From contig JANRJA010000076.1 of NCBI GenBank assembly GCA_033764315.1, positions 1 through 41,098 on the forward strand: a DNA stretch of 41,098 bases, in the 5' to 3' direction. The notes beneath the pieces are model-generated. The model saw only the letters and a program-made list of their open reading frames with translations, had not been told where the DNA came from and did not search any database. This document shows, piece after piece, positions 867 through 41,098 of this stretch. How positions within the stretch are numbered: position 1 is the stretch's first letter; the number at the start of each line of letters is the position of its first letter. The stretch is from Oculatellaceae cyanobacterium bins.114 (lineage in GTDB: Bacteria; Cyanobacteriota; Cyanobacteriia; Elainellales; Elainellaceae). The position numbers and the translations under genes are program-made.

Positions 867-3800
867 GTGACTTCTCATAAAGCTCAAATTCAAGCACTGA
901 TTAATGAGATTGATGAAGTATTGAGTAAGCCAAGCCCGCGCTTACCGTGGGTCATGGCGGGTGATGCCGATCAACAGCGTCAGGTTCTAGAACAAACTCG
1001 CAGCTATCTTCTCTCGCTTCAGGAGGAGATTCCTGACCCTGGCAGTGTTGGCTTGCCCAATAGCCCTTTAGCTTACAATCTCGCCTATCCTCAAGGGCAA
1101 GCCCCAGCCGTTGAGTCGGCTCAGCAAGTCTTGCAAGCCGTATTGCAAGAAATGAGCTATTTGCGTGCCAATGTGATGCAGCCCTTGAGACAGGATGTAG
1201 AGCAGTTACAACAACAACGAGAGGCTCTGCTGCTAGAAGTGCGCATGTTAGAGGGACAACGTCAGCAACAGGCATTGCCCCAAGCGCAGGTCAATCAGCA
1301 ACAAATTATTACCGAGTTTTTGCAGTCCTTGATGGGGCGACTGCAAGAAAATTTGACTGGGCAGGTCGCTCAGATGGTTGCCAACCTGGAAGCACAGTCT
1401 ACTCAAGAACGAGCACTTCCCGGAAATATGCCGTTAGACACAGTGCACCCTGAAACTGGAATTTCCTATCAGCCTGTGCTCACGGCTCAACAGCGGCTGG
1501 AACAGATTCAAACACTGCAATCTCAATCTGACCAACTGCTCCTCAAGCTCGACTCCACATTGCGGGTTATTTTTGAGTCACTACAAAGCAACATTCAAAG
1601 CTATCAAGACTCTTTGAGCCAAGGTCTTGATAAGATGCACAACCTGGGGCAACAGGGCGAAGCCATGTTTGCGGCGTTAGTTAATCGGTTGGCGCAACAG
1701 CTCGGCAGAGAAGCCTCTACCTATTTGCAATCCTCCCTACAAACGGATTGGGAGGCGGCAGGTCGTCCTTTGCCTGCGACTGTGAAAACCCCTGAAGGAG
1801 CACAGATTCCGCAAGGGTCGCCCTTTGTGCTCGATCTGGCACCGATCGCCGACAGCGATGAAGATGTATCTGATGACCAGATTGATCTCTTGCTAAATGA
1901 ACTGCAAGCAGACGAACCTGCTACAAGCATTCAATTACCCATTACTTCAATTCAGCCCCCCGCTCAAAGCCCATCTGAGCTTAATTTTGATGACCTTGAT
2001 CTCGATGATTTAGGGCTACAGTTGCCCACAATGCAAAGCGGTTCCTCTGGGGTAACTGACGCAGATCCTTTAAATCAGGGTTTTCCAGCGTTTCAAGTTG
2101 ATGATGACATCACTTTCTTTCAGGTCGATCAGCCATTGACCTCATTTCAGGTCAGTGATGATGAGATGGCTCAACTACAAGCTGATTTAGATGCAGCCGT
2201 TCAGATTCCAGAAGATGAAAGGTTTGTCGAATCAGAGTTTGAAGAAAGAGACTCAGCCCTCGACTTATTAAATCAACTCAGTGCCGAGTTGCAGCCTGAT
2301 GAGACTGAGGCTCAACCAGAGATTGGAGTCGTTGATGTTGAATCAGCGGCAACAATGCCTTCTAGTCAAGAGGGCTATGACGATGACATGAGTGAGCTAT
2401 ATGAGAGCTTGTTTGGTGCTGCGGCAGTTCACTCGGCAGATGGGTTAGACCCTACGACAGAACCTGTAGATCAGCATGTTGCCGATGCCACGCAAGAACC
2501 ATCTGAGGCGGCTATCTCTGCGCTAGAACCCTCGGAGTTAGAACCCTTTGAAACGATGGCCGCTTTAGAGCCGCCGCTTCAAGTAGAGGTCAGCTCAGAT
2601 GCCCCATCGCCAGAGGTGACTGATGCATTAGTGGAAGAACTGTTTGATGGATTGGTAGATCCTGCTCAGACTGAGACCATTGCTTTAGCAGACAATCTTG
2701 CGAGTGAACCTTCTAACTCATTAGAAGACTTACTGGGAGAACCCCTGTTACTAGAGTCAGAGTTGGCGGTTGGCGATAGTGTTAGTGGTTGGCAAGACGA
2801 GGCGAGTCTTGAGGGTGATATCCCCAGCGATGTCGATATGATTACCAGTCTGTCTGACTTGACCACAGAACCTAGATTAGAGTCTGCCTCTGACGTAACA
2901 GATGAGTTTTCTGCTGATGCTTCAGGCTCACAACTGGATGAAGATATCTTTGTGCCTGCTGCACCTGATGAGGTGTTACTGGTCTCTGAGGACGAGCTAA
3001 CCCCTGAAGTTCGGGCTGATCTAGATCTGGGTGACACGATTTTGAGCCAACTCACCACCGATCTGTCAAACCTAGAAGATCAGAGAGGTGACGTTTCATT
3101 TGAGCCTGACCTGTTAGAGTCTGACTTGTTAGGATCTGACTTGTTAGAGCCTGACTTGTTAGAGCCTGACTTGCTAGAGCCTGATCTGTCAGCCCTCGAC
3201 GAAGTTGATATTGACTTGGAACAAGACCTGTCAGCGATCGCCCCTGACATTGATTCCATCCCACAAGACGCAAGCAGTTCAGACGAGCCTCAACTTCCTC
3301 CCTACAACACTTACTTCTCAGATGAGTTGCAACCTCCCATTGATTTGTTTGACGAGGCTGCATCAGGAGATCTGTCCCTATCTCAAAATCAGTTTGAGCC
3401 TTCCTTGGTTGACGCTGATCCACCGTCTGATTCTGCCCCATCCAACAGCTGGCAAAGCTTACTAGATGATCTGGCGACGACCTCTGACCCAGTTGTATCT
3501 TCTGAAACTACACCAGAAGAATTGTGGGCAGTTCTGGAAAACTCCTCTCCTGAAACCCCCAACTCACTTGATTTATCCACAGAGCTTCAAGAACTGTCTT
3601 TGGATGATCAAAATACTTTAGATCCGCCGCTAGAGCCTTTATCAGACACGGCCTTGCTGAATATGTTCTTACAGGAACCGACATCAGAGGTCGCTAATTC
3701 AGAACTTATATCCACTGAGCCAGACAATCCTCTCATCCAAGAAACGGCCTTTTTGGATAACTTGTTTTCAGAACAACCCAGTGAAGCAACGGTTGAAGAC

Positions 3801-6800
3801 AGTACCCGTGAGGTGATGCCAAGTAGTTTCCCGGATGGGGTAATAGCTGCCTCAGAGCAACAGGTTGATGCTGATATTGCAGCTAGCTCTGAGACCTCAA
3901 GCAATCAAGCTTCGCTTAATTCGCTGCCTTCAGAGTTGTTGGATGAACTATTCCCTCCTGACCCTGCAAGTACTCCGACTGAGCCGTTACAACCCGATCT
4001 TCAACCAACCCCACTAACTCCACTAACTCCTGCTTCAGCGGCTCTTTTGGCGACTGATACGGCACTCCCATCGGTGTCAATTCCGCTCGAAGACGATGCC
4101 ACTCTGGATGATATTTTTGCCACAGTGCCACCGTTACCAACTGATCTTGACGATGCCCTCAGCCCTCTAGCTTCTACCTCTGATGAAACGCCTTTCTTAG
4201 ATGATTTGTTTGGCAGCGCACCACCCATCGATATTGCTGCTGTAGATTTGCCAACTAGACCCTCATCTGGTTCCACAACACCCGCTCCGACTCCAGCCAC
4301 AGAAACTCATGACCCGGTTGAAACGCTGTCAATCGCATCTCTTCCAGTTAGAGAAACATCGAGTAAAGAGATTGAGACCAATGCGTTTACGTTAGAGGGG
4401 TTGGCAGAGAGTCTGTTTGAAGACGCGCCCGACCTCAATTCGATGGATCTGGGTGAGCCGACCTTTCAACCAGAATCAGAAGATTGGACGTTAGAAGGGG
4501 CGTTTGGAGATTTAGGGCAAGCTCCGCCACTTCCTCCTGAGTTTGGAGAACCTGAAATTCCCTCATTAGACCCTATTTCAGCTGTAGAGGACGCTGAAAA
4601 AAAAAAGACTCTAGACCCAGAAACGAATTTTGAAGCGGTTCTCCAAACTAATTTTGAGACGGTCACTGACCCAACTGATGTTGTGGAGGTTGGGGGCGAT
4701 GTGTCTGCCTCAAACCAGTCACTCCCAGAAGGTCATTCAGAGTCTACTGAACTCTTGCTCGACGAACTCTCCCTTCATCACGAGCTTGATCAACTCTCTG
4801 TTGAAACCAACACCGCTGAACGAGATGAGGTAGAGGAGACAAACGAGTTAGATGAATTAGATGAATTAAATGAGTCTGACCTATTCTCAATTGCTTCATC
4901 AGAGGCAGATCTGCCAACTGCAAATCTGGCGGCAGAATCAAATGACTTGGGTATTGACCCTGCGGATCGGTCTTTAGAGTTTCTTGATCTGAGTTTGCCT
5001 GAAACCAACGCTGCCGAGTTGCCTGCTCCGATACCTCAACCCGACCCTGCCGTTGCAGGAGATCCATCAATTGCCTCAGAACAAGCCGTCGACGTGTCTC
5101 TGCCAGAGTTGAGCGAGTTAGCGTTAGAAGATCTGGAGTTAGAGGATTTAGAGTTGGGCGAGTTGGAGCCAGAGTCTTTGGAATCTTCTCAATCCCCAAC
5201 CACCTCTGATTTCAGAACGGCTGAGCTACAAACTTCTGATTTGCTGGAGTTATCGGAAGACCTGGGAATTGATGCCCAAGAACTGCAAGCCCTGTTAGAA
5301 ACTGATTTTGCTGCAGAGGAGTTTTCACCTCCCCCACCCTATCCCCGCTTTGATGCTGCACCTAAAGTGTGGTATCTCGGTATTGATTTTGGAACAACTG
5401 GAATTTCGGCGGTGCTGCTTAATCGGGTGAGTTTAGAGTTGTATCCTCTGTACTGGTGCATGGGTACTCAACCCGACTCCCCCGTTGATGAAAGTGCTTC
5501 GCATCGCAATTTGGGTGACAAACAATTTCGATTGCCCACGATTGTCTATCTATCGCCTAGCGATCGCCCCTCGAATATGCCCGATTTTGCAATGGATTTC
5601 ATGGGGCAAAGCAATTTGGTGACAGTAACGTTTCCTACCGCTCATCCCCAGGGGGCTAGTCACCCATCGGTCATGGCTGATCCTTCAAAGCGGTTATTAC
5701 GAGACGCTAAACCCTATCTCAATGTTGGCATTCCCCATTACTCTCCTGAAACCGCCCAGTGGGAGCCTGTCTTACAGTGGTCTAATCAATCGCTCTCTCT
5801 AAGTGCTGTTCATCAAGCGGTGCGAACTTTGCTATCCACGCTCAGCATCACTGAGGAAGATATTGCCGATGCTACTACCCCAACCTGTGCCGTTTTAGGA
5901 ATGGAGGAGAGCAGCTTTCAGACGGCACTGCGGCAACTAGCAGGAGTGGTGGTCGGCTGCCCGGTGGGATGGGCTGATACCTTTAGCTTTAACATCCGGG
6001 AGGCGATCTTGGGAGCACGCCTGGTCAATCGTCCTGATCAAATTTTTGTCGTTGAAGATGCGATCGCCACTTTGCTGTCAGGGCTACCCAGTGCCGATGC
6101 CCGTCCCTTGACTTTGCCTCAAGGCATTGCCCAAAACCCTGATTTACACAACATGGATTGGGATGGTCCTACGTTGGTGATTAATGCCGGGGCAACTGTC
6201 ACCGATATGGCATTGGTCAACCTTCCCCAAGATTTGCAAACCCTGACCTATCAAGACTTTCATCTCCGCAGTCTGGCTTATGCTGGCAATGCCCTCGATC
6301 AAGATATCATCTGTCACTTAATCTATCCGGCATGGCTCCAGCGATTACCCCAGGGGGGAAATAGTTCTGCATCGCGCCAATCGACACCCCCTACCGATGG
6401 CACTTCGTTGAACTATACGTTTGGGTCAGGGAATGGGGCTAAATCAGGTACCTTTGTAGATGGCTGGAACTGGCAACCCAGTGATGCAGAGCCTCCCAGT
6501 GAGCAAAATTGGCGCAATCTGGGGCTAGATAATTTGTCATTTCCTCTGGTGGGTGAACCGGATGTGCAAAATCGCTTTGCCCTGCAACAACGCCTATCCA
6601 ACTCCCCAATAGGGCAGGGATTGCTAGAAGCGGCCAGACACTTAAAGCTAGTCTTACAACAACAAGACCGATTTGTGCTGCAACTGGGGGATCAACAGTT
6701 AGCGATCGCCCGCCAAGATTTGGCAAGTGGTGTCTTTTTACCTTACATTCAACGGCTCAACCGAGAGTTGAATGCGTTGATGAATCAAACCGGAATAGCC

Positions 6801-14214: not shown

Positions 14215-15237
14215 ATGACTACAGCTACCAGACAACGACGACCTAGTAAAGACTCTAACATTCCTTCGGCAACGACTCGCGTGTTAGCTCTAGATGCGGG
14301 TAACTATGACCTCAAGTTCTACGATGGTGTGGGTCATCCCAAAGCAATCCGCTCAGTTCGTTACCAATTACCGCAGGGGCGCGATCCGGTTCGTTATACA
14401 GATGCATCTCCCTTAATTGAACTGCCCGACGGTACTCGCTATCACTTTGGTGCTCAAGCTTATAAATACAGACGCCAACAACAAACGGTTATTGAAAACA
14501 AAGTGGAGCTATCTCGGTTACATCTTTATGCTTGTTTAGAACCGTGGAATGGCTCGACTGAGTTTGCCATGCACCTTTATGCCAGCACTCCAGAACCCAA
14601 CAAAAACGATGAAGCCATTCGCAAGCAACTGCTGGGAATGCATGAATTTAAGCGTAATGACATCGACTATCGTGTCATGGTCGAGCAAGTTGAGGTCGAG
14701 CGTGAAGGCATGGGTGCCTATCGCTATGCCAAACAGATGGGATTGATTCCCGATGGGGGTTACACGATTGTGATCGATATCGGAGGCGGCACCTGGCTAA
14801 CTCGCTTAGTAGACGCAGAAGGGGAAGTGATTGATGAGAATGTCATGGATCGGGGTGGTGCTTATGAACTAGCCACTTCTATTAGCTTTGACAAACGCTT
14901 GACCAATGCGATCGGAACGACAGCCGACCCTAGTTTGGTGATGGATGGTTTTCGAGTTGAGCACACTTACGCCGATACAGGTATTTCCTGGAGTGGTTGG
15001 TTAGATGAGCATCTAGAACCCTGGTTTAAGGGCATTTTTCAAACTGTGAAAGCACAATATACCCCCTACATGGCGCGAGTCACTCGGTTTTTAGTAACAG
15101 GGGGTAGCACTCACTTGATTTCTGAGCGATTGGCAGGTCGCAAGTTGTTTGCGGTTATGGGAGATCCTCAGTTCGCTAATGTGCGGGGTTTGTTCCTTCT
15201 CTCAACGGATGTGCAACTATGTATGACAACAAAGTAA
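14215..15237 (+). CDS. ParM/StbA-family actin-like ATPase, chromosomal
   Basis: Actin-fold motifs LALDAGNYDLK, EGMGA, VIDIGGGT, VTGGSTHL and DPQFANVRG; 340 aa. Confidence 0.88.
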   Translation: MTTATRQRRPSKDSNIPSATTRVLALDAGNYDLKFYDGVGHPKAIRSVRYQLPQGRDPVRYTDASPLIELPDGTRYHFGAQAYKYRRQQQTVIENKVELSRLHLYACLEPWNGSTEFAMHLYASTPEPNKNDEAIRKQLLGMHEFKRNDIDYRVMVEQVEVEREGMGAYRYAKQMGLIPDGGYTIVIDIGGGTWLTRLVDAEGEVIDENVMDRGGAYELATSISFDKRLTNAIGTTADPSLVMDGFRVEHTYADTGISWSGWLDEHLEPWFKGIFQTVKAQYTPYMARVTRFLVTGGSTHLISERLAGRKLFAVMGDPQFANVRGLFLLSTDVQLCMTTK

Positions 15238-15494
15238 GACTCAGCCAAGATGTGATTGAAAAAGCCGAGCAGATTGCCAATGAGTGGGGCTTAAAAAATG
15301 CTCGCGCCGCCGTAGAAGCTGTATTTCGTCGCTACTCAGATGAGTATCTACATGGACGCGATCGCTTTGAAGATAACCCCACTCATTTTCCAGGAGCAGG
15401 GGCAATTGCCCACCATGTCCAAGCTAAGGCTCAACAGTGGACTCAAAACGGATGCGAAGCTCTTGATGCATTGGATGATCTGCTGGCAATGTAG
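15219..15494 (+). CDS. ParR-like small adaptor protein (ribbon-helix-helix-like N-terminus)
   Basis: Overlaps the parM-like gene by 19 bp. KVRLSQDVIEKAEQIANEWGLKNARAAVEAVFRRY fits strand-helix-helix; short C-terminal helix ALDALDDLLAM. Confidence 0.7.
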   Translation: MYDNKVRLSQDVIEKAEQIANEWGLKNARAAVEAVFRRYSDEYLHGRDRFEDNPTHFPGAGAIAHHVQAKAQQWTQNGCEALDALDDLLAM

Positions 15495-15510
15495 GGGGAT
15501 TTGATTGAGA

Positions 15511-15532
15511 GAGACGCGATTAATCGCGTCTC
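15511..15532. repeat. Perfect 22-bp palindrome (REP-like), possible bidirectional terminator between convergent genes
   Basis: GAGACGCGATTAATCGCGTCTC. Confidence 0.75.
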
Positions 15533-15559
15533 CCCTAAAACTATTTTCCTCAGCTCCCT

Positions 15560-16027
15560 TTACGGGTCACAGCGAATCTCGACCAGCAAACCATCCGGGT
15601 CATAAAAATAAATTCCTCGACCGGTAGGACGGTTGACTGGGCCGTGATCGATCGGAATCTGGTTAAACCGAATCACCTCCACCGCCTGATCAAACAGATG
15701 AGGCGCAATATCAAATGCTAGATGCCCCATGCGGGTAAAACTTTGTGCTGGATCGATATGAGGAGGTTCTAGTTCAGGTTTCCAAAACAGATCAATTACC
15801 GTGCCATCGGGGGTAACAAAGTTAGCGGCTTCACCCGCTTCAAACAACGCCTTCAAAGTCTCTGGTACTTCGTCACCTTGCAATTCTCGTAACCCCAACA
15901 CCACTCCATAAAAATAACGGGATACTTGTAGGTCTTTCACATTCAGGGCAATGTGATGAACCCGACGCAGCATTCCCGTTGAGAGGAGTGGTTGAATTGG
16001 TTTGTGAGGAGAAGAAAAGCTGACCAT
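15560..16027 (-). CDS. VOC (glyoxalase/bleomycin resistance) family protein
   Basis: VHHIALNVKDL, GHLAFDI, GIYFYDPDGLLVEI. Confidence 0.92.
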   Translation of the reverse strand: MVSFSSPHKPIQPLLSTGMLRRVHHIALNVKDLQVSRYFYGVVLGLRELQGDEVPETLKALFEAGEAANFVTPDGTVIDLFWKPELEPPHIDPAQSFTRMGHLAFDIAPHLFDQAVEVIRFNQIPIDHGPVNRPTGRGIYFYDPDGLLVEIRCDP

Positions 16028-16071
16028 AGAAGAGGGTTAACTGAGCTAGCTATCAGAATAGCGCAGCCAGC

Positions 16072-16221
16072 TTAATTCTCGTAATCGCGTTTCTTTAGGG
16101 ATGCAAGCATCTGCTGTTTAACTTCCTTTGCCCATAAATCAAAGTTAAAGTTTTCGTTACTGACGGGTGGAGTCGTTTCTGAGGAATTGTTTGGTTGGCT
16201 TTGTCTTGAATTCGCTTTCAT
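16072..16221 (-). CDS. Small hypothetical protein, 49 aa
   Basis: Below the ORF track cutoff. MKANSRQSQPNNSSETTPPVSNENFNFDLWAKEVKQQMLASLKKRDYEN; co-oriented, 44 bp upstream of the VOC gene. Confidence 0.6.
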   Translation of the reverse strand: MKANSRQSQPNNSSETTPPVSNENFNFDLWAKEVKQQMLASLKKRDYEN

Positions 16222-16282
16222 TGCTCGAGGTTGAAGTAGATAAAGATTCTAAGTTGTTTGAGAAACATGACAACTCAAAACC

Positions 16283-16296
16283 GTAGCATAAGCTAC
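16283..16296. promoter_or_regulatory. Putative NtcA binding site
   Basis: GTAGCATAAGCTAC = GTA-N8-TAC, palindromic. A second near-match, GTGAAATTAGCTAC, lies at 16380-16393. Confidence 0.6.
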
Positions 16297-16436
16297 AGAA
16301 TCATAGTTGTAATTCTATCGCTCTGCCCATCATCCTTGGGTTAAGTTTTGACGAGGCTTTTATTAAAGTTCCCTAGAGAGTGAAATTAGCTACAGCCATA
16401 GTTAAATAGGTAGGGAGCGATCGCCCCCTACCCACC

Positions 16437-16496
16437 TTCAGCCACTGTCTTAACAGCCACTGTATTAATAGCCCTAGTGTTAACAGCCGTGGTATT
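16437..16496 (+). repeat. 15-bp degenerate tandem repeat, 4 copies
   Basis: AACAGCCACTGTATT-like units directly after the thioredoxin stop. Confidence 0.8.
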
Positions 16497-16504
16497 AACT
16501 GCTT

Positions 16505-16822
16505 CTAAACCAGGGTCTGCAAATGCTGAATGAGTTGATCGGCTCTTAGCACGCCTTCAATGCGATCGACGGGTTGCCCTTGCTTGAACAAAACCAGTGT
16601 CGGCAAAGCATGAATTTGATATTGAGTTGCCAAATCGGGGTAGTTGTCAGTGTTGATCTTGACCACCCGAAGTTGCTCTTTCATCTGGGCGTTGACCTGC
16701 TCTAAAATCTTCGCCATCATCTGGCAGGGACCACACCAGGGAGCATAAAAGTCGATCAACAAGGGCATGTCAGATTCTGCAATCATTTCTTGAAAGCTGC
16801 TGTACTCTTTTTTGACTGCCAT
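16505..16822 (-). CDS. Thioredoxin (resembles y-type/TrxQ)
   Basis: DFYAPWCGPC active site; MAVKKEYSSF N-terminus. Confidence 0.93.
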   Translation of the reverse strand: MAVKKEYSSFQEMIAESDMPLLIDFYAPWCGPCQMMAKILEQVNAQMKEQLRVVKINTDNYPDLATQYQIHALPTLVLFKQGQPVDRIEGVLRADQLIQHLQTLV

Positions 16823-16911
16823 AAGACTAGAGGAGTTAGGGACTGTAGCTTCATCCTAATTCAAATTTTTGGGTTCAACTGGGGTGACACAAATGGCTTA
16901 ATATGATCTAG

Positions 16912-17691
<780 letters not shown>

Positions 17692-17750
17692 TCAGTGCAA
17701 AGTTGTCCACAATTAAATATTGATCGCTCGATGCAGAAGGTTTCAGCATT

Positions 17751-17930
17751 ATGGTGAGCAGTTTCCTAGCGGTCAAAGTGCCTCACGGGTTAACCGTCAC
17801 TGAGAAGCAATTCCGGCGGTTTATCGCGGCAAATCCTGATTTGCGGATGGAGCGCACAGCCCAAGGAAAGCTCATCGTTATGTCACCGACTGGAAGTGAA
17901 GACGGCAATCGCAACGCTGAATTAAGTGAA
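17751..17930 (+). pseudogene. Truncated Uma2 (DUF820) family endonuclease, N-terminal ~60 codons only
   Basis: QFRRFIAANPDLRMERTAQGKLIVMSPTGSEDGNRNAELS is a typical Uma2 N-terminus. Similarity stops at the attC site and the PD-(D/E)xK core is absent. Confidence 0.8.
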
Positions 17931-17934
17931 ACGA

Positions 17935-18021
17935 TGCTAACGGCTCAAATCAGCGGCGGTAAGTACCCTCGAACTCAGCACCAGCAGTTCTCACCCGTCC
18001 GCTGCATTTGAATTGTTGGGC
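17935..18021 (-). other. attC recombination site (87 bp)
   Basis: Minus strand: R'' GCCCAAC, 6 nt, L'' AAT[G]CAGC, GG[A]CGG ... CCGCC, L' GCTGATT, 6 nt, R' GTTAGCA. Confidence 0.82.
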
Positions 18022-18036
18022 TGTGAAGTGTATAAC
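18008..18036 (+). promoter_or_regulatory. Putative sigma70 promoter for the TA operon, with its -35 inside attC
   Basis: TTGAAT-N17-TATAAC. Confidence 0.5.
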
Positions 18037-18082
18037 AGAATATGTAGTACAAACTAGCAGGCTGCACAAAAGAGGATTTAAG

Positions 18083-18403
18083 TTGAAACAACAGTTGAAG
18101 ATTCAGCTTCCCCAGCCAGAGCTTGCAGCCTTCTGCCAAAAGTGGAAGATTAAAGAAATGTCCTTCTTTGGCTCTGTTTTACGGGAGGATTTTCGCTCAG
18201 ATAGTGATATTGATATCATAGTAAACTTTGAGGGCAATTCAACTTGGGGAATTTTAGAGCTTGTTCGCATGAAACGCGAATTAAAAACGCTGCTAGGACG
18301 TGAAGTTGACTTAATGACCAAAAAATCAATTGAGCAAAGCCACAATTGGATTCGTCGGCAAGAAATTTTAGGAACTGCTCAAATTGTTTATGTCGCGGGA
18401 TAA
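18083..18403 (+). CDS. mntA: Minimal nucleotidyltransferase (MNT) antitoxin
   Basis: FGSVLREDFRSDSDID (GS-x10-DxD). Likely TTG start at 18083 after AGAGGA. Confidence 0.9.
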   Translation: MKQQLKIQLPQPELAAFCQKWKIKEMSFFGSVLREDFRSDSDIDIIVNFEGNSTWGILELVRMKRELKTLLGREVDLMTKKSIEQSHNWIRRQEILGTAQIVYVAG

Positions 18404-18731
18404 TGCGTCACTACTTGATGTTGTTCAGGCAGGGCAATTAATTCTTCAATTTGCTCAGGGACTCAGCCGTGATCAACTAGCATCGGATTTACGAACACAA
18501 TCTGCAATTCTTTATCAAATTGCAATTATGGGAGAGGCAACCAAACAATTGTCTCGTCAATTCCGGGAACAACACCCAGAAGCCCCTTGGGATGATATCG
18601 CAGGGATGCGAGATATTGTTGCCCATCAATATGATCGAATCGATTTAGACATTGTTTGGCAAGTCATCCAACGAAATATTCCTGAACTGTTGAATGTATT
18701 AGTAACTCTACTACCAACTCAAGACACCTAA
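18390..18731 (+). CDS. hepT: HEPN (DUF86) RNase toxin
   Basis: MRDIVAHQY (Rx4HxY), IMGEA and PW motifs; overlaps the MNT gene. Confidence 0.9.
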   Translation: MSRDNASLLDVVQAGQLILQFAQGLSRDQLASDLRTQSAILYQIAIMGEATKQLSRQFREQHPEAPWDDIAGMRDIVAHQYDRIDLDIVWQVIQRNIPELLNVLVTLLPTQDT

Positions 18732-18793
18732 ACGATCGCTTTATGTACTCAACAGAAGCGATTTGAGTACTGTCCAAACTGAGAACTTAAGCA

Positions 18794-18879
18794 GCCCAAC
18801 GTTCCAAATTAGCGGCTGCTAGCATCTCCAACTCAGCACAGGTGTCTCTCGACAGTCCGCTGCATTTGGGTTGTTAGCC
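18794..18879 (-). other. attC recombination site (86 bp)
   Basis: Minus strand: R'' GGCTAAC, 6 nt, L'' AAT[G]CAGC, GG[A]CTG ... CAGCC, L' GCTAATT, 6 nt, R' GTTGGGC. Confidence 0.82.
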
Positions 18880-19312
18880 AGCGCTCAACGGCGATCGCCC
18901 CCACCCATCTCTCCCAACCTCTCACCTCCCACAACCACCGCCATTGTACTCAACCTTTCACTGAACACAGAAAATATTTCGGGTCTTTTAACGTTGGCAG
19001 AAAGCTTTGCTATGTCTAACCTCTAGTTTGGGGGCGATCGCTCTCCCACCGTCATCCTTCAAACCACGGTTCGGAAAGCATTAACTCAACGGCGATCGCC
19101 CCCTGACACCTGTTGGGACACTCAACTGTGACCCAGATTGTTGATGAACTCAACCTCTCGCTGGAGGCGATAACGCTGTGAGACTGGACACTGGGGCGAT
19201 TGCCTCGATGAACTCAACCTCTCGCTTGGGGGGCGATCGCACACACACCGATACCGTTGAAGTACCGGGATCTTCAACCTCTCAACCACTCGGTAACCCT
19301 ATTGCGAAAGCG
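18880..19312. repeat. Gene-less cassette body, copy 2
   Basis: Colinear with 19399-19799; no convincing ORF. Confidence 0.75.
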
Positions 19313-19398
19313 GGCTAACGGTAAAGCTCAACGGCTGCAAGCAATCTTCGCCACGCCACTAGCACTCACCAACAGTCCGTTGCAGCGCAGTGTTAGCC
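19313..19398 (-). other. attC recombination site (86 bp)
   Basis: Minus strand: R'' GGCTAAC, 5 nt, L'' GCT[G]CAAC, GG[A]CTG ... CAGCC, L' GTTGAGC, 6 nt, R' GTTAGCC. Canonical 5/6 spacing. Confidence 0.85.
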
Positions 19399-19799
19399 TG
19401 CGCTGTTGGGCGATCGCCCCCACCCATCTCTCCCAACCTTCCACCTCCCACAACCACCGCCATTCTACTCAACCTTTCGCTCAAAACAGAAAATCTTTCG
19501 GCACGCTTAACATTGAGGCAAAACCTCGAAGGACTACACCTCTGTTTGGGGGGCGATCGCCAACCACACCAACACTTTTCAACCACGGTTCGCAAAGCGT
19601 TAACTCAACGGCGATCGCCCCCAGACACCTTTTGGAACTACGAACTCTGATCAATATCGTTGTTGAACTCAACCTCTCACTTACGGCGATCGCATTCTGA
19701 GTCTTGTCACTTTGAGCGTTAACTCTTGCTGACTCAAACTCTCGCTTTGGGGGGCGATCGCACACCCCACAGAACACTCAGAAACACCGAAACGTAGCG
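19399..19799. repeat. Gene-less cassette body, copy 1
   Basis: Colinear with 18880-19312. Confidence 0.75.
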
Positions 19800-19822
19800 G
19801 GCTAACTATTGTTTAGCCTGCT
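19796..19822 (-). other. attI-like tyrosine recombinase core site
   Basis: Inverted arms AGCGGGCTAA / TTAGCCTGCT around a 7-bp spacer. Minus strand reads GGCTAAACAATAG|TTAGCC. Confidence 0.62.
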
Positions 19823-19836
19823 TTCTTATCCTTTAG

Positions 19837-20057
19837 TCTGTCTAACATCTCTAATTTGGGTGATTAGACAGATCCAAAGTTGAATATCTCCTGCTCTACG
19901 GGAGTTAGGCTGACAAGTTCTCAGCCTAACTCCCCAAAATGGGGTGTTATACAGATCAAGATTGGGCTATCTCCCTTAAGAGCTAGATAACTATCCTAAA
20001 TAGGTGTTTAGCCAGCTCTTGCTCTGCATAATAGCCTTGCTACGAGGTGTTATACAG
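19837..20057. repeat. Array of about 5 short palindromic units (TAA-N17/18-TTAKNCAG-like)
   Basis: TTA boxes at 19864, 19905, 19947, 20008 and 20050. Perfect 14-bp inverted repeat at 19900-19934. Confidence 0.65.
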
Positions 20058-20163
20058 GTAGCTTCAGCAAATCTTCAGCGTCAATGCTAAGGGGGGCAGC
20101 GTGCTCAATTCTCACCTTTTTACCCTTATATACATCCACTTGCCAAAGCACTAATTCAACTTT

Positions 20164-20244
20164 GGTAGTCCTCTAAAAGTAATGATTTTTGAGTCAGGAT
20201 ATGCTGTGCAGAGCGCGGCATATCCTGACTTGTTTAGGACTACC
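20164..20244. mobile_element. 81-bp MITE (family A)
   Basis: TIR GGTAGTCCT/AGGACTACC; 7-bp flanking direct repeat CAACTTT (20157-20163, 20245-20251); internal hairpin; second copy at 40894. Confidence 0.8.
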
Positions 20245-20363
20245 CAACTTTCATCAGCCATAATCTTAAGATTTGGTGTTAGAAGGTACGATCGCCTCGT
20301 TGGTTCCCAAAGGGGTAATCGCCCCTGATAATAGATCAACAGCGACGTAGCAGAACAAGGCGC

Positions 20364-21452
20364 ATGGGTAGTACATTTGGGCAATTATTTCGAGTGACCA
20401 CCTTTGGTGAATCTCATGGAGGTGGGGTGGGGGTTGTGATTGACGGGTGCCCACCGCGATTAGAGATTTCCATTGACGAGATTCAGTTTGAACTCGATCG
20501 CCGTCGTCCGGGGCAGAGCAAAATCACCACCCCCCGCAAAGAAGAAGACAAGTGCGAGATTCTCTCTGGCATCTTTGAGGGCAAAACGTTAGGAACGCCG
20601 ATCGCCCTCTTGGTACGCAACAAAGATGCGCGATCGCAAGACTACGACGAGATGGCACAAAAATATCGTCCTTCTCACGCCGATGCGACCTACGATGCCA
20701 AGTATGGCATTCGCAACTGGCAGGGGGGTGGGCGTTCTTCAGCACGGGAGACGATTGGACGAGTTGCCGCAGGGGCGATCGCCAAAAAGATTCTCAAACA
20801 GGTCGCTGGGGTTGAGATCATCGGCTATGTTAAGCGCATCAAGGATTTAGAAGGTGTGGTTGACCCCAACATCGTCACGTTGGAGCAAGTTGAGAGCAAC
20901 ATTGTTCGCTGCCCCGATAAGGAGTGTGCCGATCGCATGATTGAGTTGATTGAGCAAATTGGGCGATCGGGCGATTCGGTCGGTGGTGTTGTGGAGTGTG
21001 TTGCGCGATCGGTTCCAAAAGGGTTAGGAGAGCCTGTGTTTGACAAACTAGAGGCAGACTTGGCAAAAGGGATGATGTCTCTGCCTGCTAGTAAAGGCTT
21101 TGAGATTGGCTCTGGTTTTGCAGGAACGCTGATGACTGGAATTGAGCACAACGATGAGTTTTATATCGATGAGCAGGGTGAGATTCGCACTGTGACTAAC
21201 CGCTCTGGCGGTATTCAGGGAGGAATTGCTAACGGTGAAAACATTATTTTGCGGGTGGCGTTTAAGCCGACTGCGACAATTCGCAAAGAACAACGCACTG
21301 TGACCAAAGAAGGCGAAGAAACCGTTTTAGCGGCCAAAGGACGGCACGATCCTTGTGTCCTTCCAAGAGCAGTGCCGATGGTGGAGTCGATGGTGGCACT
21401 GGTGTTGTGCGACCACTTGTTGCGACATCATGGCCAATGCGAGTTGTTTTAA
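20364..21452 (+). CDS. aroC: Chorismate synthase
   Basis: [31 protein letters not shown]. Confidence 0.98.
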
Positions 21453-21522
21453 ATGAAAGGATGAAGGATAAAGGTTGAAATACAGTTTTATTGTTATCCT
21501 TTAGCATTTAGCCTTCTCTCTT

Positions 21523-22104
21523 ATGGCTCTGACGGCTTCCACAATGTTGCCCCTTGGCACACTGGCTCCTGACTTTCAACTCACAGATGTGGGGTCGGGC
21601 AAATCAATTTCCCTTGCAACATTTGCCGATAAAAAGGCATTGCTGGTGATGTTTATTTGTCGCCACTGTCCGTTTGTGAAACATGTTCAACAGCAATTGG
21701 CACACCTGGGACACGATTATGTAACTCAATCTTTAGGGATTGTGGCTATCAGTGCTAATGACGCTGAGAAGTATCCCGAAGATGCACCCGATCGCCTCCA
21801 AGACATGGCAAAAACTCTGGGCTTCACATTTCCAGTCTGTTATGACGAGAGCCAGACTGTTGCCAAAGCCTATACCGCTGCCTGTACTCCTGACTTCTTT
21901 GTGTTTGATGGCGATCGCCACTTAGTCTATCGGGGGCAACTTGATAGTAGTCGTCCTGGGAACGGTGCACCTGTAACGGGCAAAGACTTGAGAGCGGCGA
22001 TCGATGCTGTATTGGCAGATCAGGTTGTTTCGGTGGAACAACAGCCCAGCATTGGTTGCAACATCAAGTGGAAAGCGGGCAATGCACCGAATTATTTTGG
22101 CTAA
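21523..22104 (+). CDS. Thioredoxin-fold AhpC/TSA (redoxin) family protein
   Basis: APDFQL, FICRHCPFV, AACTPDFF, YRGQLD, SIGCNIKW. Confidence 0.9.
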   Translation: MALTASTMLPLGTLAPDFQLTDVGSGKSISLATFADKKALLVMFICRHCPFVKHVQQQLAHLGHDYVTQSLGIVAISANDAEKYPEDAPDRLQDMAKTLGFTFPVCYDESQTVAKAYTAACTPDFFVFDGDRHLVYRGQLDSSRPGNGAPVTGKDLRAAIDAVLADQVVSVEQQPSIGCNIKWKAGNAPNYFG

Positions 22105-22107
22105 ATT

Positions 22108-22271
22108 AACCTGAGTTCGGGATCAGGATTTTGGGGGTTGAAACCGCTGCTATACAAGCAAAACAACCTGCATCGGTTCAGTCAACCTTTGATTTTGGTA
22201 GTCCGCGACGGCGGACTTCGCTCTGGTAGCCGTGAATTTATTCGCTGGGCTGCTTAAACCGAACTGACGTT
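22108..22271. mobile_element. ~164-bp MITE (family B)
   Basis: TIR AACCTGAGTTCGG/CCGAACTGACGTT; flanking AAATT duplication; inverted second copy at 40958-41098. Confidence 0.8.
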
Positions 22272-23676
22272 AAATTAAGGGGCGATCGCAACCCGTAGAA
22301 GCAAGGGGCACTGTAAACCAAAACGTTGCTCCTGCGTTGGGTGCACTGTTGACCCCCATGCGCCCGCCATGTGCTGTAATAATCTGTTTACACAAATGTA
22401 GCCCCAACCCCAGACCCGGCAGATAACGGGCGCGGCGACCTTTGGCATAGAGGTCAAACAACTGTCGAGATTGTTGGAAGGTCATCCCTACCCCATCGTC
22501 TTGAACTGAGCAGCGAAGCGATTTGCCTTCGACTTTGGCATCTAACGTGAGATGAATGCCAGGAGGGTTATGTTTGATAGCATTTGAAATCAGATTATTA
22601 AAAACCCGACCTATTTGAACCGGATCAACCTGAATCGGAGGCAAATCGTCTCGAATTTTATTGGTCACTGAGACTTGACTTTTAGCCAGCAACGGTTCCA
22701 TCTCTGTCAGCGTCGCTTGCAAAAAGGGTTGGAGATGAATTGACTCACGCTGCAATAAAAAGCTGTGAACATCGCAGGAATGAGCTTCTAATAACGAGTT
22801 CAACAAGCTCATCTGGCGATCGCTGCCCTGCAACATGCGCTCTAACATGTAGCGATTGACCGTGATGCGCTCATCGGAGGTTTTGAGCAAGCTTTGCAAC
22901 ACCATAGACGCGCCCATTACTGGGGTTCGCAGGTCATGCGTCACTGTGTTCATAAAGACTTGCAATTCTCGCTGAGACTCAAACTCAGTCCGTTGCAACC
23001 GCTCATAAAGATAAACCGCTAAATCACAGATCAGGCAAAACCAGAATAAATATAAAAATACAGAGGAACTATAGATCGATTCTCCATCAAAGGTTGTGGT
23101 GAGTCCTAATAGGGGATAAACCGTCAAGTAATAGCCGATCGCCCCTAACTGAGAAAGTAGGTGTAACCACCATCGCACCGGAATCAGGGTTGCCTGGGTC
23201 AAAAACACTAACGACCAACTCAACAACTCAGGGCAGGGAAACCCCCAAAGAGTCATGATAATTTGAGGAACCAGGGTAATTGACCAAGACAAACTCAAAA
23301 AAATAACGTTGGGATGACGTTTGCCCCAACGTGTTTTGAGTAGAACCAGACAGGTCAACAATGAGACGGCCATTACCCCATTGATCAGGGGAAACAAATT
23401 TTTTAAGGACTGAGGCAACTTTGCCATCTCTTCCAGATGAAAGACAGCATCATAGGTATCTCGAACAATAAAAGTTAATAGACAAATGAATGCGAGCCAC
23501 AAACCCAGCTTGAGGCGATCGCGCAAAAAGCGGAGTTTCCAGGCTCGATAGTCGGCTGATTCAAAGGGGGGCTTTAATTGCTCAAATCGGCTCAGGCAAG
23601 ATTGAATTCTAAAATTCGCCTTTTGCCATACCATACTCGTTTCCCTCGCTAGTGCCGCAAAAAACATGTTTCCCAT
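22270..23676 (-). CDS. Membrane sensor histidine kinase
   Basis: Multiple TM helices, THDLRTP H-box, NLISNAIKH, DDGVGM, GLGLGL. Start uncertain (alternative ATG near 23634). Confidence 0.92.
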   Translation of the reverse strand: MGNMFFAALARETSMVWQKANFRIQSCLSRFEQLKPPFESADYRAWKLRFLRDRLKLGLWLAFICLLTFIVRDTYDAVFHLEEMAKLPQSLKNLFPLINGVMAVSLLTCLVLLKTRWGKRHPNVIFLSLSWSITLVPQIIMTLWGFPCPELLSWSLVFLTQATLIPVRWWLHLLSQLGAIGYYLTVYPLLGLTTTFDGESIYSSSVFLYLFWFCLICDLAVYLYERLQRTEFESQRELQVFMNTVTHDLRTPVMGASMVLQSLLKTSDERITVNRYMLERMLQGSDRQMSLLNSLLEAHSCDVHSFLLQRESIHLQPFLQATLTEMEPLLAKSQVSVTNKIRDDLPPIQVDPVQIGRVFNNLISNAIKHNPPGIHLTLDAKVEGKSLRCSVQDDGVGMTFQQSRQLFDLYAKGRRARYLPGLGLGLHLCKQIITAHGGRMGVNSAPNAGATFWFTVPLASTGCDRPLI

Positions 23677-40893: not shown

Positions 40894-40957
40894 GGTAGTC
40901 CTCTAAAAGTAACGATTTTTGAGTAAGGATATGCCGTGCGGAGCGTGACATATCCTT
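40894..40957. mobile_element. MITE family A, second copy, interrupted
   Basis: Near-identical to 20164-20227. Confidence 0.75.
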
Positions 40958-41098
40958 AGTTCGGTTTAAGAGCCTAGCGAATAAATTCGCGGCTATCAGA
41001 GCGAAGTTCGCCTTCGCGAACTACAGAAAATCAAGGGTTGAGTGAACCGACGCAGGTCGGTTTTGCTCCTGTAGTTGCGGTTTCAACCGCCAAAATCC
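40958..41098. mobile_element. MITE family B, second copy (inverted, runs off the window edge)
   Basis: Reverse-complement match to 22128-22265. Confidence 0.78.

Follow-up and report, generated by a model that had tools for sequence, protein, structure and literature searches.

How does a row of cassette-like units, each ending in an imperfect palindrome, come to stand in a cyanobacterial genome without an integrase gene beside it? This question is raised by a contig of Oculatellaceae cyanobacterium bins.114 (GenBank assembly GCA_033764315.1, contig JANRJA010000076.1), the whole 41,098 nucleotides (nt) of which were analyzed and are here called the window. An initial annotation, made from the DNA letters alone, had described positions 17,935–19,822 as an attI site followed by three attC cassettes with no adjacent integrase. 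Our analysis bears this description out, as the attI-like site at the head of the array is homologous to one that stands beside an integron integrase gene (intI), and no match to the integrase (IntI) profile TIGR02249 was found anywhere on the 41-kb contig. We conclude that the segment is very probably an integron cassette array without an integrase, that is, a cluster of attC sites with no integron integrase (CALIN), that still carries its attI. With three attC sites and no integrase on its contig the array falls in the CALIN class. The window does not hold a complete integron, in which intI stands beside attI and cassettes; in this genome intI lies on a different contig (C16), which is joined to a second array on contig C183. 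The initial annotation had proposed a satellite array; a CALIN descended from an integron platform that lost its intI is a more fitting description of the element than a purpose-built satellite.

CALINs were defined by Cury et al. (2016; PMC4889954), whose survey reports 279 of them and includes cyanobacteria among the bacteria that encode integrons, and Ghaly et al. (2021; PMC8352920) built a cyanobacteria-specific attC covariance model. Since CALINs, cyanobacterial integrons and an attC model for them are already published, the locus belongs to a known class of element. The remark in the initial annotation that integrons are little studied in cyanobacteria is fair. Native cyanobacterial integrons are mentioned in surveys, and none of the papers listed by our literature search was devoted to them.

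The attC sites and the units they delimit

Read on the minus strand from 19822 to 17935, the segment consists of an attI-like core followed by the units that end in attC sites A, B and C (Table 1). The coordinates, lengths and cassette limits are those claimed in the initial annotation. Every site has a 7-mer ending in AAC at one end and a 7-mer beginning with GTT at the other. The AAC and GTT are invariant, or nearly so, in an alignment of 16 sites from this genome and in one of 36 sites from other genomes that were fitted to a covariance model; the pattern RYYYAAC/GTTRRRY is only loosely followed.

Table 1. Features of the array and its surroundings in the window (minus-strand features of the array are numbered in the order in which the array is read)
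Feature	Position	Strand	Remarks
Uma2-family N-terminal remnant	17751..17924	+	about 58 residues; Pfam Uma2, profile positions 3-43 of 172
Lineage-specific segment	17922..20293		2372 bp in place of 1065 bp in the sister species (G001)
attC site C	18021-17935	minus	87 nt; R'' 18021-18015 GCCCAAC, R' 17941-17935 GTTAGCA; R1 91.4, R2 70.6 bits
Cassette 3	17941-18799	minus	859 nt, ends in site C; predicted toxin-antitoxin genes antisense to the array
MNT-type nucleotidyltransferase (antitoxin-like)	18008..18403	+	Pfam NTP_transf_2, E 5e-16
HepT-like HEPN ribonuclease (toxin-like)	18384..18731	+	Pfam HepT-like, E 3e-26; overlaps the MNT gene
attC site B	18879-18794	minus	86 nt; R'' 18879-18873 GGCTAAC, R' 18800-18794 GTTGGGC; R1 85.7, R2 67.5 bits
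Cassette 2	18800-19318	minus	519 nt, ends in site B; no open reading frame, HIP1-rich
attC site A	19398-19313	minus	86 nt; R'' 19398-19392 GGCTAAC, R' 19319-19313 GTTAGCC; R1 82.2, R2 71.7 bits
Cassette 1	19319-19805	minus	487 nt, ends in site A; no open reading frame, HIP1-rich
attI-like core	19800..19818	minus	inverted repeat GGCTAAAC-AATA-GTTAGCC; crossover G19806|T19805
Remnant of attI-proximal/intI-promoter region	19819..20077	minus	TCTGTCTAA-type repeats; 16-mer 20062-20077; no intI

The cassette starts had been claimed to match the R'' boxes in the way expected of integrated circles, and this was confirmed both in the window and across the genome. Cassettes 1 and 2 both begin with TTAGCC, and the R'' of each is GGCTAAC. 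Cassette 3 starts with TTGGGCTG, directly after the G|TT of site B, and its own R'', in site C, is CAGCCCAAC. The bases after the G|TT of site B therefore complement the R'' of the next site and not that of site B itself, which is the pattern expected of circles integrated in a row. In the window the B-to-C pair reads GTTGGGCTG against CAGCCCAAC. A test that sets the 8 nt following each G|TT against the R'' extension of the next site gave 6 of 8 for this pair, against 4 of 8 in the own-site comparison, and was applied to the 17 consecutive site pairs in the genome that have canonical ends. At least seven of the eight positions matched in 7 of the 17 pairs, in none of the 17 own-site comparisons, and in 2.0% of 698 unrelated pairs (binomial 2e-8); three pairs with non-canonical ends, which were set aside, scored 3/8.

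The same site family was found elsewhere in the genome with BLAST and a first covariance model. When 16 genome copies were aligned, 89% of the cells were paired and compensatory changes were present in 14 of the 22 pairs, a result reached by none of 500 column shuffles. Sliding the partner by 1–3 columns cut the pairing to 25–46%, and RNAalifold, run unguided on the same 16 copies, returned the same hairpin. The AAC arm carries two single-base bulges, a G and then an A, which occupy alignment columns 23 and 30 and are separated by 6 pairs. On the top strand the proximal (L'') bulge is G in 16 of 16 sites here and in 35 of 36 elsewhere, which corresponds to C on the bottom strand, and the distal bulge is A in 16 of 16 and 32 of 36, corresponding to T. 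In the top strand the bulges fall in the AAC arm, so that the plus strand of the window is the recombined bottom strand. The distance from R'' to the first bulge is 8 nt in site A and 9 nt in sites B and C, which agrees with the 6-nt spacer that had been noted in two of the sites. The two extra bases of the initial annotation are likewise present, as the G and A bulges, but its placing of the second of them two bases after the first is right only when counted from the end of an 8-nt L''.

These features resemble those described for attC-aadA7 and attC-oxa2 by Nivina et al. (2016; PMC5027507), namely AAC/GTT inverse core sites, top-strand bulges in the AAC arm, a 6-base-pair (bp) stem between first and last bulge, a distal T on the bottom strand, and a length within 57–141 bp. 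Unlike the attC sites described there, those in the window have a mostly paired spacer, with 3 unpaired nt per arm, a C in place of the usual G as the proximal bulge and, in two of the three sites, a first bulge at position 17 and not 16. The finding that cyanobacterial chromosomal attC sites form a recognizable, taxon-specific family is shared with Ghaly et al. (2021), the main text of which does not mention extrahelical bases or a logo.

Two covariance models stood in for the attC model of IntegronFinder. The training set of the first (R1) included the window's own sites, and for that reason the second (R2) was built from other genomes only, using 36 sites beside IntI genes of other cyanobacteria. 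Over the 41-kb window R1 matched exactly three sites, at 82–91 bits, and R2 matched the same three at 67.5–71.7 bits (E about 1e-16). On the opposite strand R2 scored 16–22 bits, and nothing else across the 41 kb fell below E 0.6. A covariance-model search was the test that the initial annotation had set for itself, and all three sites were recovered by both models. An Rfam scan of positions 15000–23000 at E up to 1 gave no relevant match, the two that were returned, to a CRISPR repeat model and to rhtB, being at chance level.

Beyond the window, R1 (E < 1e-3) matched 43 sites on 23 contigs of this genome with scores of 30–99 bits, 27 of them outside its training set. Matches were also present in 40 of the 41 related genomes searched, with up to 88 in a genome. 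The attC family is thus nearly universal in the cyanobacteria sampled, and its proximal extrahelical base is conserved and is not that of textbook attC sites.

The attI-like core and the integrase of the genome

For about 190 bp ahead of cassette 1 the sequence can be aligned with the attI-proximal part of the platform that carries intI (C183/C16) and with that of a third platform, on contig C155. The alignment spans the repeated TCTGTCTAA-type motifs and the core before the crossover; it was obtained with MAFFT, as stringent local alignment of platform and window gave only a 16-mer. Of the three platforms in this genome, that of the window has diverged furthest in its attI region, and upstream of about 19990 only an isolated 16-mer (20062–20077, equal to C16:75–90) is shared. 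The junction with the first cassette, predicted from the R'' of the first attC, was a GTT after a like inverted repeat in all nine platforms that were compared, drawn from this genome (G000), its sister species (G001) and a complete genome of the same family (G003). The region thus has the head-of-array position of an attI and homology to attI sites beside intI or intI remnants, and no intI adjoins it. By these comparisons the region is a paralogue of the C16/C183 platform that has diverged and from which the integrase gene has gone.

A single intact integron integrase is encoded in the genome (C16:150–1127, 325 amino acids). It scores 482 bits against TIGR02249, for which the cut-off of 265 bits was reached in none of 14 control genomes. 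It aligns end to end with the Vibrio cholerae integrase VchIntIA (PDB 2a3v; E 2.7e-94), and over residues 6–318 of IntI4/VchIntIA there are no large gaps, the ALERKYP-type stretch and the ...IYTHV segment being included. Contig C16 begins 149 nt upstream of intI, and positions 1–141 of C16 and of C183 are exact reverse complements of each other. On C183 stand an attI-like core, at 233–243, and five attC sites belonging to this family, on the strand that points away from intI; joined through the overlap, the two contigs have the canonical geometry of an integron.

Just upstream of the intI start at position 150 a perfect TAGTAC-N4-GTACTA-type palindrome was observed at about 122–137 of C16 (loci L013/L001). 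A diverged copy precedes the IntI remnant of C155, and none is present in the window's platform. We take the palindrome before intI to resemble a cyanobacterial LexA box, which would fit control of intI by the SOS response.

The attC family is linked to this type of integrase in other genomes as well. R1 gave 36 matches in 80 IntI loci of named cyanobacteria with an IntI identity of 63–77%, among them Nodosilinea, Leptolyngbya, Pseudanabaena, Pleurocapsa and Chamaesiphon. Of these matches 35 lie on the strand opposite intI, and the remaining one is one of the 35 read in reverse. All 36 are upstream of intI and none is downstream; among the 42 loci having at least 1 kb of upstream DNA, 28 have a match. 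Relatives of the integrase (63–69%) were also seen in metagenome-assembled genomes (MAGs) labelled Chloroflexota/Anaerolineae, Gracilibacteria and Poribacteria (L054, L078, L081, L097, L105, L106, L108, L112 and L113), three of which (L054, L078 and L108) have R1 matches too. Their presence there may reflect binning error or transfer between phyla.

Other platforms of the genome are degraded. The C155 platform retains a 40-residue IntI fragment with a stop. This N-terminal fragment and the attI core (L035, C155:30000–36500, at 3300–5365) are followed by a 1.5-kb first cassette with an attC at its end; by eye its genes were named as a MerR-like one (antisense) and a 330-residue one resembling NAD-dependent epimerases/dehydratases. 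The first 171 nt of contig C112 (L033, 1–1400) equal those of C16 at 99.4% identity, covering the attI side and IntI codons 1–7, and a split DDE-type transposase follows; C112 could be either a second platform disrupted by an insertion sequence or population heterogeneity at intI. The genome therefore holds a single intact platform, that of C16/C183, beside the decayed ones of C155, C112 and the window.

In the lineage, where the initial annotation had suggested that an IntI be sought, an IntI match (E 1e-30) was found in 26 of the 41 related genomes and a score above the TIGR02249 cut-off in 20 of them. Many relatives also hold IntI fragments or copies with internal stops. All 15 relatives without an IntI match (G006, G008, G010, G012, G016, G018–G020, G023, G026, G029, G032, G033, G037 and G039) carry the attC family, with 1 to 64 R1 matches each. 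In G003 three near-identical attI regions were observed (L025–L027, at about 3.585, 1.686 and 1.964 Mb of C1). Two of them, L025 and L026, adjoin only a C-terminal IntI fragment, and the best IntI copy in G003 has an internal TAG; the 47 R1 matches of this genome possibly exist without a working integrase.

Contents and dispersal of the cassettes

The two genes of cassette 3 (Table 1) are adjacent and overlap, and their translations contain the G-S-x(n)-D-x-D motif (GSVLREDFRSDSDID) and the R-x4-6-H motif (RDIVAH) of HepT/MNT systems. Judged by these motifs and the Pfam matches, cassette 3 is a predicted HepT/MNT toxin-antitoxin (TA) pair. The real start of the MNT gene is likely to be an in-frame TTG at 18083, behind AAGAGGA.

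Cassette 3 was also found outside this genome, in contigs from four metagenome runs belonging to four studies, at about 97.7% identity and with unlike flanks. A 5663-nt contig of run X1 matches 17936–18804 with 20 mismatches and 1 gap. Past 18804 its sequence is unlike that of the window and forms a loose end, and about 3.8 kb are unaligned past the 17936 end. In runs X4, X10 and X12 loose ends were observed at 17937, 17950 and 18800/18801. The unit ends in the metagenomes thus lie at most 5 nt from both G|TT crossover points, inside the conserved R' cores. The initial annotation had made its reading depend on where unit boundaries fall in other DNA, and the ends of cassette 3 come within this distance of where it placed them. 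None of the three outcomes that it had named as refuting (no covariance-model match, no IntI in the lineage, boundaries elsewhere off G|TT) was observed. Such an occurrence of the same unit in another context was obtained for cassette 3 only; at most 16% of the sampled words were covered in any of the sequencing runs searched, and uncovered stretches are uninformative.

Cassettes 1 and 2 are paralogous, at about 78% identity. They contain 9 octamers of the highly iterated palindrome HIP1 in 1006 nt, against 1.6 per kb genome-wide and none in cassette 3. Copies of this cassette without an open reading frame (ORF) occur twice in C183, once in C223 and in part in C21, and also in genomes G003 and G008; the paralogues of cassettes 1 and 2 elsewhere are 76–84% identical to them. 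The two types stand in reverse order in C183 relative to the window. No match to the ORF-less cassettes was found in IntI loci of other cyanobacteria (L014–L018 and L037–L116). We considered and rejected the possibility that this cassette is a universal component of the platform, given the lack of a match in other IntI loci and its second, not first, position in G003.

A promoter and terminator scan of 17700–20400 called 3 sites, against 2.7 in shuffled sequence. Missing from these calls was the TACAAT-like block that the ORF-less cassettes conserve, and a promoter role is unsupported. A structured-RNA test of the ORF-less cassettes likewise gave no support (covariation term 0.1 kcal/mol), and since their long helices consist of invariant HIP1 motifs this test is uninformative. 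Other patterns were observed in these cassettes, namely about five copies of a GAGAGGTTGAG-type motif (window 18800–19805; L006 238–1276; L007 833–1340) and four HIP1-bearing 12-mers that form two nested inverted pairs. The 10-mer GAGAGGTTGA occurs 36 times in the genome and 4 of these occurrences are in the ORF-less cassettes.

On the main array (L006, C183 1284–4584) inspection by eye suggested names for several genes: a BrnT/BrnA-like pair (sense), a 377-residue S1-domain-like protein, a small membrane protein and a PIN/antitoxin-like pair (antisense). TA-like pairs, so identified by eye, therefore stand in both orientations on this array.

TA cassettes with their own promoters are described as enriched in chromosomal integrons and have been proposed to penalize cassette loss (Richard et al. 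2024; PMC13108822). With the V. cholerae superintegron, as described in that paper, the system studied here shares a homogeneous, lineage-specific attC family with a long conserved variable region and self-promoted TA cassettes, together with an integrase that aligns over its full length. Unlike the superintegron, this system has arrays of small size (3 and 5 sites) and several platforms at scattered places in the genome; further differences from that description are the first bottom-strand extrahelical base, C and not G, and the type of TA pair, which is HepT/MNT.

Origin of the array and rival explanations

The sister species G001, the only other species of the genus that was compared, has at this locus trx-fabG, an intact Uma2 gene of 198 residues, 639 bp and aroC; it is syntenic with the window on both sides and gave no R1 match there. 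Homology to G001 ends at about 17921–17924 and resumes at about 20294–20300, and no target duplication is visible at the junctions of the segment. In the window the Uma2 gene is cut after about residue 58, at the point where the array begins. With Uma2 intact and attC absent at the locus of the sister species, the array represents an insertion or replacement specific to this lineage. The two sequences would be most economically explained if part of the locus had been replaced, in the lineage of this genome, by a fragment of a platform or by a complete integron from which intI was lost later.

Loss of intI, rearrangement and insertion at secondary sites are the origins proposed for CALINs by Cury et al. 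(2016), who also regard mobilization in trans as possible. Their survey reports that 95% of CALINs have no nearby intI pseudogene; in its treatment of CALINs, attI was not searched for. Like the class described there, the array in the window shares its genome with a complete integron. Unlike the CALINs described in that survey, it retains attI and part of its platform, homologous to the attI beside the intact intI of the same genome, and the empty site of a sister species dates its arrival.

Several observations weigh against our reading of the segment as a CALIN with its attI. On the bottom strand a C takes the place, as proximal bulge, of the G that published attC sites usually carry; as the published rule says "usually", we consider this a deviation from the attC definition and not a failure of it. 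Folding energies of the single DNA sequences are within the range of shuffled sequences (z about -0.2 to -1.83), and the minimum-energy folds of sites A and B differ from the canonical hairpin, so that the attC structure is apparent only from comparative analysis. Two of the three cassettes have no ORF, no Pfam match and no conserved frame. The L-box of the window's attI is CTAAAC, against CTACTT beside the intact intI, and attI sites are described as recognized only by their cognate integrase (PMC2095811). The link between intI and its array depends on the 141-nt overlap of contig ends, and the first 171 nt of C16 recur on C112, where they run into a transposase. At its left end the segment meets Uma2 11–13 nt past the R' of site C and not at its G|TT, which speaks against a simple insertion of the array at this place by IntI. 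On the same grounds, and with no GTT evident in the G001 orthologue, we lean against an IntI-mediated insertion into a secondary site in Uma2. Finally, the assembly is a draft of 251 contigs that is 90.7% complete.

Among the rival explanations, we give the most weight to one in which the segment is an inert relic, a former integron now decaying and no longer recombined that is kept by the cost of losing HepT/MNT or because little time has passed. We regard this as possible but on balance doubtful. It would account for the missing intI and promoter region of the window, the divergence of its attI from that beside the intact intI, and the other decayed platforms in the genome, those of C155 and of C112, where a transposase follows codon 7 of IntI. 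The relatives tell a similar story, being rich in IntI fragments and internal stops, with only 20 of the 26 genomes that have an IntI match scoring above cut-off and R1 sites still present in every relative without IntI. Yet the three attC sites are among the better-scoring in the genome with their pairing intact, and an apparently intact IntI is encoded elsewhere in it. The order of the cassettes differs from that in C183 and cassette 3 is present at about 98% identity in other contexts, which together argue for recent mobility of the units, although not necessarily in this genome.

Two further alternatives would deny that the segment is an integron array of its own. The dispersal of the family over 23 contigs here and over nearly all relatives, the many matches that are single and the lack of an Rfam match might be taken to indicate a cyanobacterial dispersed repeat, similar to repetitive extragenic palindromes or to miniature inverted-repeat transposable elements (MITEs), that merely resembles attC. 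We find this scarcely credible in view of the 35 of 35 distinct sites (36 matches) that lie upstream of intI and point away from it, the cassette-specific R''/R' permutation, the canonical 6-bp spacing of the bulges with a bulged T, and the unit boundaries at G|TT in other DNA. An assembly artefact, namely a chimeric join brought about by repeated attC sites or cassettes, with the array in truth part of the main integron, is also very improbable. The fragmentation of the draft, the breaks of the main array at repeats (the common ends of C16, C183 and C112) and the paralogues of cassettes 1 and 2 elsewhere would speak for such an artefact. However, both flanks of the segment are unique and syntenic with G001 and two false joins would therefore be required; the paralogues, at 76–84%, are too diverged for assembly collapse, and the attI region of the window is unlike those of C183 and C155.

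Under the CALIN reading, which we prefer, the history and working of the array may be envisaged as follows. An integron platform comprising a paralogue of attI, an attI-proximal region of about 190 bp and the three cassettes would have settled between fabG/Uma2 and aroC, and its intI would have been lost in this lineage. The bottom strand of each attC, which is the plus strand of the window, could fold into the canonical hairpin, in which the R box is followed by a partly paired spacer, then by an L box with its bulge, a stem of 6 bp, the bulged T and finally a variable loop. The IntI encoded on C16, once expressed, would excise the cassettes of the window by recombination between attC sites, and the excised cassettes could be reinserted at attI, either in the window or beside intI. 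Such service of the array in trans, which the initial annotation had proposed, is plausible. The HepT/MNT cassette, antisense, self-promoted and at the distal end, may act as an addiction module that penalizes loss of the array.

We also considered a broader hypothesis, although we think it rather unlikely. It holds that this filamentous group has distributed integrons, in which attI platforms, most without intI, are scattered over the genome and are served in trans by one SOS-controlled IntI. The C in place of G in L'' would then be part of a lineage-specific attC geometry, and the conserved ORF-less, HIP1-rich cassette, of which this genome has 5 and which two other genera share, would not be junk but would serve a non-coding function, perhaps as a promoter, as a unit that binds protein or as one that folds.

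The locus provides a clean natural example of how a CALIN can originate. It combines in one case a retained attI matched to an intact platform, an empty site, a cassette found elsewhere and an intact integrase, and this combination makes the question raised by Cury et al. (2016), whether cassettes of CALINs are still exchanged in trans, testable in one organism. To what is known of such elements it adds an attI without intI, a comparator with an empty site, the extrahelical C for G, a family of ORF-less cassettes and a cassette in other contexts. It carries no resistance gene and has no medical bearing.

At the aroC-side edge of the segment, we noted a dispersed, palindromic, MITE-like repeat of 85–95 nt at 20160–20250, which is also present at 40894–40971 of the window and has more than 80 copies in the genome at 75–97% identity.

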